Positions 10,084-62,791 of a DNA stretch of 64,000 nucleotides are shown here, piece after piece. The position numbers were made by a program, and so were the translations under genes. The notes under the pieces were generated by a model. That model was not told where the DNA came from, searched no databases, and saw nothing but the letters and a program-made list of their open reading frames with translations. Position 1 is the first letter of the stretch; the number at the start of each line of letters is the position of its first letter. Source of the stretch: Octopus vulgaris (taxonomy: Eukaryota); the NCBI GenBank assembly GCA_951406725.2, contig OX597822.1, positions 64,294,001 to 64,358,000 of the forward strand, read 5' to 3'.

Positions 10084-11554
10084 TATTTCTTTTAAATTGC
10101 CATAAAGGCATTACACAGAGGGGGCACTACAACACTCGTGGGACATATAACAATTAAAAATAAAATATGTTATAATGAATGAACATGAAAATGCACATGA
10201 AGAACAAATTAAAATATGATAATATGAATGATATCTGAAAATGATATTATGAAGAGTGTGCTACTCACCTCACACTGAGTAACACAACTCGCTGCCTCTG
10301 GGTCCTGAGTCCTTTTTCTCTTTTCGTCCAATCCTTTTTTCCTTTTCACTGTCACTTAATGATAACATTCTCTCCGTCATGCATTCATAACCTTTTTCAC
10401 CGGGAGTGGGGTCTTCTAAATTTTGTGGTGTCTGTTCTTTCTTTTTCTTTTTTTTTCTTGAGGGGAAATGGGGTGGGTGTGTTTGGTGTCTGTATGGGGA
10501 GGGTGGGTCTGAGTGGTCTTGGATGGGATGGGGTTGGACTGGGGTGCCACATCATACTCAGTGTCTTTTCTTTTTTTCCTCTTTCTCCTTTTGCGCTCTG
10601 CAATTTTCCATTCTTCCTCTTTTTTATCGTTTCCTTCGTCTGTTTTGTCTTCCTCTCTTTTCTCTTCTGTCTCTGCAACTATATCCTCAGCCGTAGTCCT
10701 TCGTAGAGGGCAGTATGCTCTAATGTGGCCCTTTTGGCCACATTTAAAACAACGTGGTACTCTGCCCTCTACCCACACCCTCAGCACGATTTCCCCCAGC
10801 GTCACAGTCTCTGCCAAGTTCTCGAGTTGTCCCTCCTCCGTCTGAATAATTAACTCGAGCGTCCTTCCTTTCCACCCTCCTTCTTCTGTTTCTGTGGCTT
10901 GGAGGACAGCCACCTTTTCCTCGCTTCCAACAAGGACAGCTGCCGCTACCCAAGCCACATTTATATCAGGCGGAATTCCTTCTACCCTTATCTTGGAAGT
11001 CCTTCTTCCAAGATACGTGGGTAGAAGGACCATTTCCTTCGTCTTTACCGTTTTGCCCGCCAGCCTCCTTGCCTCCTCCTCTGTTCTGAACTGGACTACC
11101 ATTGTCCCATATTGGCATCCTCTTGTCATGTATATTACTCCGTTGGATTCCTCCTTTACTGCCTTTTCTATTTTCTCTATTTCAATTAGGTCGATCTTCT
11201 TACTCTTTATCGAGTAAACTTTGTATATGACCGTTCTTTTTATGCCATCCATTATTCTTTGTGGCAGTGACAACGTCACGTTGCCGCCCACTTTCTGCAC
11301 CATTTTTCTATGCTCCTTCATTCTTGATAAATCCACCTCTTTTCTCTTCACCTCCACAGCTTCTGCGAAACTCTTCATGTTCTTCAAATATTCATCCATG
11401 CATTCTACTGCTCTCAGCAGCTCCTCCTCTGCAGAAGACAGCTCAGACTCGCTAAGGTCCGAGTACATTACTAACCTCAAAGCAGCAAAAGGAAAAACGT
11501 CCGACTCGCATACAAACGACAAACCAAATGCACTATGGGTAACCGGAAGCAAGC
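10084..11554 (-). mobile_element. ~1.47-kb non-autonomous L1/Tx1-type non-LTR element (ORF1 only) inserted in the SINE-A head
   Basis: TSD 10067-10083 / 11555-11571 (1 mismatch); 5' end GCTTGCTTCCGGTT..TCGGACGTTTT; 3' tail CCCCCTCTGTGTAATGCCTTTATGGCAATTTAAAAGAAATAA; no RT. Confidence 0.85.
10416..11468 (-). CDS. Gag-like ORF1 nucleic-acid-binding protein, 350 aa, single CCHC zinc knuckle (CFKCGQKGHIRAYC)
   Basis: Uninterrupted ORF from the first ATG inside the element (MYSDLSESE); CX2CX4HX4C, basic WKIAERKRRKRK motif; homologous to the ORF at 63363. Confidence 0.85.
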   Translation of the reverse strand: MYSDLSESELSSAEEELLRAVECMDEYLKNMKSFAEAVEVKRKEVDLSRMKEHRKMVQKVGGNVTLSLPQRIMDGIKRTVIYKVYSIKSKKIDLIEIEKIEKAVKEESNGVIYMTRGCQYGTMVVQFRTEEEARRLAGKTVKTKEMVLLPTYLGRRTSKIRVEGIPPDINVAWVAAAVLVGSEEKVAVLQATETEEGGWKGRTLELIIQTEEGQLENLAETVTLGEIVLRVWVEGRVPRCFKCGQKGHIRAYCPLRRTTAEDIVAETEEKREEDKTDEGNDKKEEEWKIAERKRRKRKKRKDTEYDVAPQSNPIPSKTTQTHPPHTDTKHTHPISPQEKKRKRKNRHHKI

Positions 11555-11596
11555 TGGTTAGCAAGCTACTTACCACACAGCCACTCCTAGGCCTAT
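11555..11596 (-). mobile_element. SINE-A 5' head fragment
   Basis: Reverse complement ATAGGCCTAGGAGTGGCTGTGTGGTAAGTAGCTTGCTAACCA. Confidence 0.85.
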
Positions 11597-11984
11597 GGAT
11601 GGAAGCACTCCGTCGGTTACGACGACGAGGGTTCCGGTTTAACCGAATCAACGGAACAGCCTGCTCGTGAAATTAACGTGTAAGTGGCTGAGCACTCCAC
11701 AGACACGTGTACCCTTAACGTAGTTCTCGGGGATATTCAGCGTGACACAGAGAGTGACAAGGCCGGCCCTTTGAAATACAGGTACAACAGAAACAGGAAG
11801 TAAGAGTGAGAGAAAGTTGTGGTGAAAGAGTACAGCAGGGATCATCACCATCCCCTGCCGGAGCCTCGTGGAGCTTTAGGTGTTTTCGCTCAATAAACAC
11901 TCACAACGCCCGGTCTGGGAATCGAAACCGCAATCCTATGACCGCGAGTCCGCTGCCCTAACCACTGGGCCATTGCGCCTCCAC
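11597..11984 (-). mobile_element. Full-length tRNA-headed SINE, family C, with 11-bp TSD CCTAGGCCTAT
   Basis: A-box TGGCCCAGTGG, B-box GGTTTCGATTCCC; tail GTCGTAACCGACGGAGTGC shared with 21450 and 53530; TSD 11586-11596 / 11985-11995. Confidence 0.9.
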
Positions 11985-12084
11985 CCTAGGCCTATAAAAT
12001 AATAATAATAATAATAATGATAATAATAATAATAATAATAATAATAATAATAATAATAATAATAATAATAATAATAATAATAAT

Positions 12085-12303
12085 GATAATCCTTTCTACT
12101 GGAAGCACAAGGCGTCAAATTTGGGGAAGGAATTAAGTCGATTACATCGACCCCAGTGCGCAACTAGTGCTTATTTAATCGACCCTGAAAGGATGAAAGG
12201 AAAAGTCGACTTCGGCGGAATTTGAACTCAGAACGTAGCGATGGGCGAAATAGCGCTAAGCATTTCGTCCAGCGCGCAAACGATCCAGCTTGTTCACCGC
12301 CTT
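12085..12303 (-). mobile_element. SINE-B (alternative tail ..CCTTGTGCTTCCAGTAGAAAGG)
   Basis: Family match. Confidence 0.85.
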
Positions 12304-59690: not shown

Positions 59691-61789
59691 AGAGCGCCTG
59701 TGCCGTTCTGCTGCTTGCAGTAAGTAAGCACTGCAGTAATTCTGTTCTGCTATATGCAGCAGGAACTCATCAAGTACTGCTGCAAGATTGTAAATTCTTT
59801 CAGGTTAGCGACATCAGATCCAGATGTTAAAGTACAACGGAATGTATTTGCTGTTTATCACCGATGTGCATGCATGCATCTTTCCATTCCATTCTCTCTT
59901 TGCTTGCTGTTTGTTGTTGTCACATAAAATAACGGTAATAATAATAATAATAATAATAATAATAATGATAATAATAATAATGATGATGATGATGATGATG
60001 ATGATGATGATGTTAAAAATCAGTTATCTTTTTTTAATCATCGTCATCGTCATCATCATCAACACCGCCACCATCACCGTCATTTTCGTCGTCGTCGTCG
60101 TCGTCGTCTTCATAGTATCATCGTCATCATTATCATTATTATCGTCATCGTCATCGTCATCATCATCATCACCACCACCACCATCAATGTCATCGCCGTC
60201 ATCAACGTCGTCATCGTCGTCATCATCGTCGTCATTATCATCACCATCATCATCATCATCATCATCATCATCATCATCACAACCACCACCACCACCACCA
60301 CCACCACATTATTGTTGTTGTTATCGCTGTTGTCTTCGTTATCATCGTCACCACCACCACCACCATCATCATCATCATCATCATCATCATTGAATCGCTG
60401 TTATTCTCATTAACAATATTACCAACAACAGCAGCAGCAGCAGCAGCAGCGGCGGCAACAGTAGTTGCAGGAACTCAACACCTCGACCATCACCTCGACC
60501 ACGAACACCACCACCACCACGATCTCCCGCCGCTCCCCCTTCCCCACCACCACCAATATCGCTTCTGCGAGATAACTACCACCAATATACTATCGCACCG
60601 CTTCGCAATGATTACCGCCGCCATCATTGCCGCCGCCACCACCATCACCACCAGCACCACCACCAGCACCACGAGCACCACCACCAGCACCACCAACACC
60701 ACCACCACCGCGACCTCCGCCGCCGCCGCCGCCGCCGCCATCTTAGCTTCGCTCATTCTTCAGCGTCGTAATCTTTACGGTGTATTTATTGTTTGTTAGA
60801 GTCAATCGACGTGTCACCATCGCTATTGTTGTTCATCGATGATGATGATGATGATGATGATGATGATGATGATCACCATTCTCATCATCATCATCATCAT
60901 CATCATCTGCAACAGCAACAACTGCAGCAGCACCATCCGGCAGCAGCACGGGCAACCGCAGCAGTAGAAGTACAAGCAGGGACAGCAGCAGTAGCACCAC
61001 AACAAACGCAGCTGTTAACTACAACCAAACACCTCCACCACCACTATCACCACCACCACTATCACCACCACCACCAACACCAGCATCACCAATACCACCA
61101 ACACCACCAATACCATCATCATCATCATCATCATCATCATCATCATCATCATCATCATCACCACCACCACCAATACCATCATCACCTCCACGACCACGAC
61201 TTCCACGATCCACCGACATCTGGTTCATTATAAAAAAAAACCTCTTATCTATTAATAAACTCTCCGGGGTTTTTTCTACTCTAGTTCATCACCATGATGA
61301 TGATCATCATCATCGTTGTCATCGTCGTCGTCGTCATCGTCGCCGTCGTGGTCGTCGACGTTGTCGTAGTCACAGTCGTCTGTCGTTTCATACTGAGTTT
61401 TCATCTTTTTCCACATACATACATACATACATACATACATACATACATACATACATACATACATACACACATACATACATACATACATACATACATACAT
61501 GCATGCATGCATACATACATACATACATACATGCATACATACATACATACATGCATACATACATACATACATACATGCATGCATACATACATACATACAT
61601 ACATACATACATACATATATATATATATATATATATATATATATATATATATATATATGCATATATATATTTACCCACACAACTATGTATGTATCTATCT
61701 ATGTATATATACTTACATACATACACACATACATACATACATACATACATACATACATACATACATACATACATACATACATACATAAG

Positions 61790-62532
61790 CACATCCACAA
61801 TTATACATAAACGTGCACAGATGTGAAAATTTGCTGCCCAGCGGACGTTAACATAAAGCTGAAGACCAGTAAAAAAGAGAACACCTATGCTGAACAATTG
61901 AGAAATCTGCAGTTACTCTATCCAGGTTACAAGGTCAGGGATATGTAACACACTGCCTGAATACCAATCTTGAGAAATTAGTCTTCTCAAAACCAGAAAG
62001 GAGAAAGCTAATTCGAAGACTACAGATCCAATCCATCACTGGAACTGTAAAAATCTGTAAGACTTTCCAGAAGTTCATCATTCAAAAATACATATGAGCA
62101 TATCTAGATATGTAACTATATGCATGATAATACATACATAAAACATACAAATCTGCACATACATACATACATACATACATACATACATGCATACATACAT
62201 ACATACGTACATGCATACATACATACGTACATGCATACATACTTACATACATACATACATGCATACATACATACATACATACATGCATACATACATACAT
62301 ACATACATACATACATACATACATGCATACATACATACATACATACATGCATACATACATACATACATACATACATACATACATACGTACATGCATACAT
62401 ACATACATACATGCATACGTACATACAAAAATATCAGTTGTTGATACTGAAATTCCTATGAAGGAACTTTGGATCTAGGTTAGAAACCGGTTCTTTCTCT
62501 ATTGGCGAGAAATCTTGAAATATACTGAATAA
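61790..62532 (+). mobile_element. Decayed CR1-like LINE 3' end plus (TACA)n-containing 3' UTR
   Basis: TYAEQLRNLQLL resembles CR1 SYEERLxxLxL; downstream part matches 1790-2146. Confidence 0.5.
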
Positions 62533-62535
62533 TGA

Positions 62536-62567
62536 TGCAGGAGTGGTTGTGTGGTAAGTAGCTTGCT
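62536..62567 (+). mobile_element. SINE-A head (host of tandem insertions)
   Basis: GCAGGAGTGGTTGTGTGGTAAGTAGCTTGCT. Confidence 0.85.
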
Positions 62568-62791
62568 CTGGCACCAGGTAAGTGTGGCCGGATCAAGAAG
62601 TAAAGGTTCTACCCAGATGGCTGGGATCCGTGCCCTACTGTATAATACCAAATTTTAAAAACTTTATATTGTAAATATTATATATATTTTATTGTAATCA
62701 CCAACGTTTTAAGCTACTACACCCTATATGTTTGTCTGTAATTGTATGTCCCCTCTATGTAACGCCTTAATGGCGAATCTTTCATGAAATA
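62568..62791 (+). mobile_element. 5'-truncated Tx1-like 3' end, TSD AAGTAGCTTGCT
   Basis: TSD 62556-62567 / 62792-62803; tail TGTCCCCTCTATGTAACGCCTTAATGGCGAATC..GAAATA. Confidence 0.8.

Follow-up and report, generated by a model that had tools for sequence, protein, structure and literature searches.

A short covarying hairpin ends Tx1-like LINEs, their ORF1-only derivatives and a SINE in Octopus vulgaris, and is probably an RNA signal for ORF2p

Several interspersed elements in a stretch of 64,000 nucleotides of Octopus vulgaris DNA (contig OX597822.1, positions 64,294,001 to 64,358,000; hereafter the window) end in a similar 3' tail that contains a short inverted repeat. This raises the question of whether the tail is simply a common ancestral ending or a signal by which a reverse transcriptase chooses its RNA. 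The motif, 45-50 nt in length, ends one L1-group (Tx1-like) LINE clade, ORF1-only derivatives of that clade and one SINE, and its covarying hairpin is likely to be the RNA signal that ORF2p would bind before target-primed reverse transcription.

The existence of a shared 3' tail, noticed in a preliminary description of the window, is borne out by an nhmmer profile of 8 tails, which finds 14 copies in the window (11.3-38 bits) and none in a reversed-sequence control. Over 998 kb of collected sequence the profile gives 308 matches at 10 bits or more, and over the same sequence reversed none at 8 bits or more. Three of the four tails originally quoted occur verbatim, at 10124 (minus strand), 62749 (plus) and 47633 (plus); the fourth, a SINE-B string, is a composite, absent verbatim from the window, where 11 close variants lie, and occurring 49 times in the collected loci, repeats of one place being counted. 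Within the window, R4/Dong-like LINE fragments and SINE-A 3' ends are without the tail, and an Rfam scan gives no match at the gathering score. The elements are present in contigs of four sequencing runs, some of which extend across the junction of tail and target; this argues against an assembly artefact and is uninformative on transcription.

The elements had been regarded as otherwise unrelated, a view that fails for three of the four. Those at 10084, 62750 and 47635 belong to one LINE clade and have the tail by descent, SINE-B alone having borrowed it. On sequence grounds, the tails at 62750 and 47635 are the 3' ends of autonomous L1-group (Tx1-like) LINEs. As anticipated, the tail terminates RT-encoding elements, and does so in three lineages: at 24 of 26 ORF2 ends in lineage T, in 25 of 25 matches in lineage A, for which the query itself included the tail, and at 30 of 30 ends in lineage C, found by protein search. 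ORF2 carries APE endonuclease, RT and zf-RVT domains (Pfam PF03372, PF00078 and PF13966; lineages A and T scanned), and among solved structures L1 ORF2p is the closest (7e-66, versus 8e-22 for R2). The ORF1 of lineage A has a CCHC knuckle above cut-off (PF00098), and such a knuckle is a feature of the Tx1 clade. The label Tx1-like is used in a qualified sense, for site-specific insertion into repeats together with this knuckle, and not for a phylogeny with named Tx1 elements. Sampling for further lineages with an outgroup query gave mostly lineage T-like matches.

Each lineage has its own insertion site. Lineage T is found in (TATC)n, lineage C mostly at a site in a decayed ORF1-like repeat, with other fixed targets in its subfamilies, and lineage A at one fixed position in the apparently tRNA-like head of SINE-A, where AAGTAGCTTGCT is duplicated. 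This last insertion, of which there are at least 1,117 junctions, was not among the observations of the preliminary description. The target duplication is of 12 bp, and the 3' target is present in 17 of 20, 23 of 25 and 20 of 20 loci, versus 8 of 600 background slices. The features of the window are collected in Table 1.

Table 1. Positions of tail-bearing and related features in the window (position 1 is its first letter)
Feature	Position	Strand	Remarks
SINE-B with tail	4613..4840	+	hairpin GCCC-CTTGT-GGGT at 4816-4828
Target-site duplication, 3' copy	10072..10083	-	remaining SINE-A continues to ~9936
ORF1-only non-autonomous LINE derivative, 1.48 kb	10084..11559	-	inserted in SINE-A head; 119 genome matches to ORF1
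3' tail, A-type	10084..10131	-	hairpin TGCC-TTTAT-GGCA at 10098-10110
ORF1, 350 aa, one CCHC knuckle	10416..11468	-	no ORF2 after; PF00098 just below cut-off
Target-site duplication, 5' copy (AAGTAGCTTGCT)	11560..11571	-	SINE-A head start ~11572-11590
SINE-B, decayed tail	21000..21219	+	
Two nested SINE-B with tails	24823..25219	-	
Array of four nested SINE-B with tails	31829..32643	-	
Lineage T 3' end	47524..47671	+	hairpin GCC-CTGTGT-GGC at 47648-47659, then (TATC)n
Lineage T RT fragment	51026..51410	-	91.7% DNA identity
Two SINE-B with tails	51922..52386	+	
SINE-B in SINE-A head	54594..54804	+	few bases upstream of LINE site
Older lineage T 3' UTR fragment	58392..58701	-	stops short of hairpin
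Target-site duplication, first copy	62556..62567	+	in SINE-A head starting ~62537
Lineage A 3' end, 5'-truncated	62568..62791	+	hairpin CGCC-TTAAT-GGCG at 62763-62775; 99.6% over 229 nt to full-length copy end
Target-site duplication, second copy	62792..62803	+	between two tandem insertions
Second ORF1-only family	62804..64000	+	ATG at 63363; 405-aa open frame; extends beyond window to 64850

The 10084 element and the neighbour at 62804 are ORF1-only derivatives of the same LINE clade. In such elements ORF1 is followed directly by the 3' tail; they are multi-copy, with duplications on both flanks. The 62804 element ends at 64850 in an A-type tail, TGCC-CTTGT-GGCA, followed by a third duplication and the remaining SINE-A. 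Outside the tail, the 10084 element has no more than one 25-nt match to lineage A and none to the 62804 family. ORF1-only families carry an A-type or a C-type tail, matching the site they occupy: of 66 labelled ORF1 rows, the 43 in the SINE-A site comprise 42 with an A-type tail and 1 with a broken one, and none of the 22 C-type tails is found there. One ORF1-only clade (SH-aLRT 99) contains sister groups with A and C tails, and across the ORF1-only lineages a different target goes with a different stem type and 3' spacer. Tail type in these elements tracks the insertion site, not ORF1 ancestry, an agreement confined to about six lineages and a quick, unfinished ORF1 tree in which identical cores were merged and from which one element (L082) was excluded, its next tail being that of an inserted SINE-B.

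The U-A to C-G compensatory change is as originally described, TGCC/GGCA in the 10084 element standing against CGCC/GGCG in the lineage A copy, and the loop of 5 nt, sometimes 6, ends in U in all 21 aligned variants; two single copies have A or G instead. These 21 rows were hand-picked as family-level variants, L233, L236 and L109 each being represented by one fully paired copy. A check of covariation comes out positive in the pairing itself, with 83 of 84 cells of the 4-bp stem paired, 20 cells changed on both sides and double changes at three of the four pairs, but not in two relatedness-robust measures, which fall short of significance (reached by 83 and 92 of 500 shuffles). The covariation score and the percentage paired are each reached by none of 500 shuffles, and slid-register controls are 19-44% paired. 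RNAalifold recovers the same helix unprompted (covariation term -1.24). The closing C-G pair shows no covariation anywhere in the alignment, and the stem is weak, between about -4 and -8 kcal/mol. G-U pairs, present in 7 cells, speak for the sense RNA; comparable folding is obtained for the antisense strand. A longer lower stem was rejected, the fifth pair being unpaired in 20 of 21 variants and further positions inconsistent. Among 110 junctions gathered without a hairpin condition, 89 are fully paired. Full pairing is seen in 9 of 10 variants common to at least two insertions versus 11 of 30 singletons (Fisher p 0.008), a contrast which is inflated because some singletons, truncated or with loops of 4 or 6 nt, come from misplaced anchors.

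SINE-B, with at least 46,000 copies in the genome, has a middle part which we take to resemble the Deu/Nin domain. Its tail is, judged from its letters, homologous to the LINE tails: 29 of 30 nt are identical to the U-rich segment of a lineage A subfamily, and 14 nt are identical to the lineage C hairpin. Of 40 copies in which a head can be detected, 13 show duplications of 12-20 bp. The hairpin is C-type, yet none of the first 100 copies listed lies at the C site or at the LINE site in SINE-A, which means that target choice depends on more than the hairpin. SINE-B may be moved by a less site-specific relative outside the lineages found here. No LINE with the exact SINE-B tail is present in the first 100 of 1,160 matches to a pattern excluding the SINE body, these 100 being read as SINE-B deletions or truncations. 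Similarly, a search for a LINE that shares the GGC-CTTGT-GCC tails of related SINEs shows none among the first 100 of 3,412 matches, which are largely tandem arrays.

The proposal that the tail is the cis signal for a Tx1-like RT is supported by the covariation and by its position at RT-encoding ends; recognition itself we infer, and the tail would then be a stringent-type ORF2p recognition signal. Which ORF2p takes up an RNA in trans, and hence where that RNA lands, would depend on the type of stem and 3' spacer, and ORF1-only elements would have switched partner by gaining a new tail. The tail might instead be nothing more than 3' UTR sequence inherited within a single LINE clade, in which case a short palindrome would pair by chance and the covariation would go back to a few ancestral events. 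The elements are indeed related, with ORF1 identities of 24-62% and ORF2 identities of 57-61% between lineages, and the tree-robust measures fit such a reading. It seems very improbable nonetheless, as the tail is kept where the remaining DNA no longer aligns, at least seven distinct double-changed pair states occur across families whilst the position just outside the stem pairs in 1 of 21 variants, and exactly this segment has been captured by a SINE.

It is rather unlikely, too, that the hairpin serves as a general handle, or as a signal for 3'-end formation or stability, to which all lineages or a host factor bind alike, with the target set by read-through RNA whose flank, from downstream of the source copy, pairs with the nicked target. 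Copies do lack a poly(A) tract and abut the duplication directly, several tails have AATAAA just 3' of the stem, and the loops CTTGT, CTAGT and TTTAT are found with both stem types. SINE-B flanks vary by subfamily and match the spots at which SINE-B nests in its own head (GGTAT, AGAAA), and co-transcription with the target is cited in PMC4494074 as strengthening specificity. Where the tail is A-type, as at 10084 and 62750, AATAAA is, however, absent from inside the element, and read-through pairing alone does not predict the joint shift of stem type and 3' spacer with the target. A more specific form of the recognition signal, put forward tentatively and at somewhat less than an even chance, is that the tail acts as a swappable address label among coexisting site-specific Tx1-like LINEs, each ORF2p reading its own stem-plus-spacer variant. 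ORF1-only elements and SINEs would be retargeted by a change of tail, and one lineage would land in a SINE promoter region, parting the A box from the B box in each copy it enters. A and B box-like motifs are discernible by eye in the heads of SINE-A and SINE-B; ARAGORN, like Rfam, reports nothing in the window.

A short 3' stem-loop common to LINE and SINE, with compensatory changes and proposed ORF2p recognition, is likewise described for eel UnaL2 and zebrafish ZfL2-1/ZfL2-2, and zebrafish L2 ORF2p is reported to bind the 3' stem-loop (PMC4176376). The octopus LINEs differ in belonging to the L1 group, not L2, in having a stem of only 4 bp and a loop of 5-6 nt and, in lineage A, in having no terminal repeat or poly(A). 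Moreover, the loop, described as conferring specificity in L2, varies within one octopus target group and recurs across groups. Monocot LINE1-1_ZM with ZmSINE2/3 and Chlamydomonas L1-1_CR with SINEX-3 are reported as L1-clade LINEs whose conserved hairpin tail is common to a tRNA SINE (PMC3747384). The Tx1 clade (Tx1L, Keno, Kibi, Koshi, and Tx1-Mar with SINEU) is described as comprising APE-RT LINEs which, as here, target repeats and insert in tandem, and which move a SINE in trans, as the octopus LINEs probably do (PMC4494074). The target descriptions consulted there name DNA transposons, LTR elements, U2 genes and microsatellites, and no SINE head; the paper reports no LINE with a common 3' end for SINEU-1, whereas the octopus tails are homologous. 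HAL1 (L1), HeT-A (Jockey) and Ag-Sponge (CR1) are similarly described as encoding ORF1 alone and needing an autonomous partner (PMC5786205, PMC5753468), but the octopus elements form several deep, long-lived ORF1-only lineages (25-48% mutual identity) which have intact frames, are site-specific and bear tails matching different partners.

The octopus clade is young and has many open ORF2 frames. The prevailing view is that strict RNA recognition has mostly been lost in L1-group LINEs. The listing in one review names just three SINEs with L1-type tails, none of them animal. With its open frames, its very small covarying tail and the several target specificities found in nature, this animal clade would make the RNA choice of an L1-like ORF2p directly testable, as well as the separability of RNA choice and DNA target choice as modules. 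A partner clade is indicated for SINE-B, one of the dominant octopus SINEs, and the SINE head joins the list of Tx1-type targets; a lineage using a SINE promoter region as its landing site would, if true, reverse the usual parasitism. The descriptions consulted of the octopus tRNA-CORE and tRNA-Deu SINEs OR1, OR2 and OK (PMC8967140, PMC4824008, PMC4758252) mention neither a partner LINE nor targeting by LINEs. SINE-A, with its CORE motif, is like these SINEs, a family likeness by description and not by reference sequences; the motif it carries is CCTTGGG, named for the CORE domain (PMC5786205).

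The tail, a 3' end motif of ~45-50 nt with a covarying 4-bp hairpin, is a real feature of this DNA. A profile of it matches 14 copies in the window, 11 of them in SINE-B, a very common SINE, whilst a reversed-sequence control of 998 kb gave no match at ≥8 bits. The genome is 2.8 Gb in size and rich in microsatellites. Three of the four tails quoted in the preliminary description occur verbatim in the window; the string given there for SINE-B is a composite of real variants. The expectation that the tail lies at the 3' end of RT-encoding elements holds in three autonomous L1-group (Tx1-like) LINE lineages, designated T, C and A. 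It closes 24 of 26 lineage T ORF2 ends (both exceptions being interrupted by other insertions), 30 of 30 lineage C ends and all 25 lineage A loci examined from 40 matches, the lineage A search query having contained the tail itself. ORF2 likewise lies upstream in four copies of another lineage A subfamily, which were identified through their junctions.

The carriers had been described as otherwise unrelated. All but SINE-B in fact form one clade: the lineages are 57-61% identical to one another in ORF2, and homology extends across the eight ORF1 types compared, at 24-62% identity. The lineage A LINE has an ORF1 frame of 478 aa and an ORF2 frame of 1,140 aa containing APE, RT and zf-RVT domains, and its ORF2 has human L1 ORF2p as best match among solved structures. 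Among homologues of the LINE protein, the only one with a named organism comes from Argonauta hians, with 65% identity across 41% of the query; the host is thus probably an octopod. Domains and best structure match place these LINEs in the L1 group, and site specificity suggests that they are Tx1-like. Lineage C was found outside the window and has many open 1,132-aa frames. It is very young (many copies 97-99% identical, ORF2 open) and builds 5.3-kb tandem arrays (L241-L285, L291-L310 for both observations). A sequence closely resembling the hairpin, GCCC-YTTGT-GGGC, occurs in the 5' UTR of lineage T (L039:1301, L044:1304, L040, L037). The fragments at 38010-40630, which we take to be R4/Dong-like from their motifs (their zf-RVT match is below cut-off), have a different 3' end without the hairpin tail.

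Elements and other features of the window
Feature	Position	Strand	Description
10084 element	10084-11559	minus	Single 350-aa CCHC-knuckle protein, without ORF2; flanked by two copies of AAGTAGCTTGCT inside the head of SINE-A
ORF1 of 10084 element	10416-11468		Scores 0.89 against ZCCHC3-like Atlas clusters; a lead only
62750 tail	end of 224-nt fragment		99.6% identical to 3' end of 5.7-kb lineage A LINE
62804 element	62804-64850, past window end		ORF1-only; similar tail, then third duplication
47635 tail			3' end of autonomous lineage T LINE; (TATC)n flanks
Presumed R4/Dong-like fragments	38010-38399, 38691-39704, 40118-40630		Two end in (TAA)n; different tail
Short frame	32994-33370		Like 3' end of another LINE
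Direct duplication	41189-42251		~505 bp
Self-nested SINE-B	24823-25219, 31829-32643, 52158-52506		Nested at two fixed head positions
SINE-B-body SINEs, other tails	12106-12299, 26190-26215, 31655-31680, 354-380	minus	
SINE-B-body SINE, other tail	21220-21390	plus	

Covariation of the stem was assessed in 21 variants which we chose to represent families. Their MAFFT alignment is gap-free in the stem, with 83 of 84 cells paired. The outer pair takes the forms U-A, G-U, G-C and C-G, the second G-C, C-G, A-U and G-U, and the third C-G and U-A; no covariation is seen at the closing C-G pair among the 21. None of 500 shuffles matched the observed percentage paired, double-change cells or covariation score, slid registers were 19-44% paired, and RNAalifold returned the same helix. 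The covariation previously proposed is upheld by score, double changes and pairing, but not by the counts of pairs and of pair types, which resist relatedness and were reached by 83 and 92 of the 500 shuffles. Among 110 junctions gathered without a hairpin condition, 89 were fully paired; full pairing was found in 9 of 10 shared variants versus 11 of 30 singletons, some of the latter mis-anchored. This stem is weak, its antisense strand folds equally well, and it is the G-U pairs that point to the sense RNA. The hairpin structure is well supported, albeit from a modest number of independent events, and a chance palindrome seems a very improbable account of it.

Site specificity adds to what had been observed before, and the system is richer than was then described. 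At loci found without requiring a target, the sequence after the tail is one 12-mer in 17 of 20 cases for the 10084 family, 23 of 25 for lineage A and 20 of 20 for the 62804 family; among background slices this 12-mer occurs in 8 of 600. On the 5' side of the element it was present in 18 of 20 loci and in 20 of 20. Genome-wide, one pattern gave at least 1,117 exact tail-end/target junctions and a control pattern gave 1, the tail being visible by eye in ~97 of the first 100 junctions listed. The target, the SINE-A head, occurs exact and uninterrupted 61,686 times, and the site holds tandem stacks of different families. Insertion falls between A-box-like and B-box-like motifs (read by eye) and so would likely disable the SINE-A Pol III promoter. 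The main lineage C site starts ACATGGAGGAAA, in an apparent decayed ORF1-like repeat, and lineage C subfamilies use other fixed sites. Extreme truncations, with little beyond hairpin and spacer between two duplications, were seen at G000:C1:223793117 and in run X16.

Tail type agrees with target. The SINE-A site accounts for 43 of 66 labelled ORF1 rows, with 42 A-type tails and one broken; none of the 22 C-type tails lies there: 13 occupy the C site or its arrays, and the remaining 9 lie elsewhere. In a quick ORF1 tree covering about six lineages, the 10084 family clusters with C-tailed ORF1-only elements (SH-aLRT 99) and not with lineage A, for which the simplest reading would be tail exchange followed by a switch of partner ORF2p.

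SINE-B has at least 46,063 copies with the exact tail end. Its tail is homologous to those of the LINEs: 29 of the 30 nt in its U-rich segment agree with a lineage A subfamily, and it has the lineage C hairpin. Related SINEs have the SINE-B body in common and diverge from the tail boundary onward. SINE-B shows a loose target preference (GGTAT/TATAT), duplications of 12-20 bp in 13 of the 40 copies whose head was detectable, and nesting in its own head in 35 of 78 copies. No LINE with the exact SINE-B tail was found among the matches listed.

The tail resembles that of stringent LINEs in the three features open to testing, namely its place at the 3' end of RT elements, a covarying stem-loop and sharing with SINEs. 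Position, covariation and SINE-LINE tail homology bear out its reading as a likely recognition hairpin. LINEs insert by target-primed reverse transcription. Their targets are set by the endonuclease (PMC4494074), and 3' stem-loops of L2 elements are bound by ORF2p (PMC4176376). Here ORF2p would bind the hairpin, and stem and spacer would then select the partner; we consider this pair of steps, taken jointly, probable. The main rival holds that the hairpin is a general handle or 3'-end signal and that read-through pairing sets targets. SINE-B, which was absent from lineage A and C sites among the first 100 copies listed, limits the claim, since target choice cannot depend on the hairpin by itself. 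The rival seems unlikely, though less so than a chance palindrome. Literature searches turned up no SINE-targeting Tx1, Tx1 tail hairpin or octopus SINE-LINE tail pair, and Repbase, Dfam or supplements may already hold these families. Thirteen recently active L1-Tx1 families are reported from an octopus in a paper whose main text does not contain the word 'target' (PMC13282606).

SINE-B subfamilies differ in 3' flank preference, which could reflect read-through pairing. Many of the other tails on SINE-B bodies read GGC-CTTGT-GCC, often with ATT repeats, having the same loop and a different stem; no partner LINE for them was seen among the matches listed. At G000:C1:8504796-8511543 and nearby, the 3' part of a SINE-B-related SINE forms a 115-bp tandem satellite, to which the copies L316-L322 are similar.
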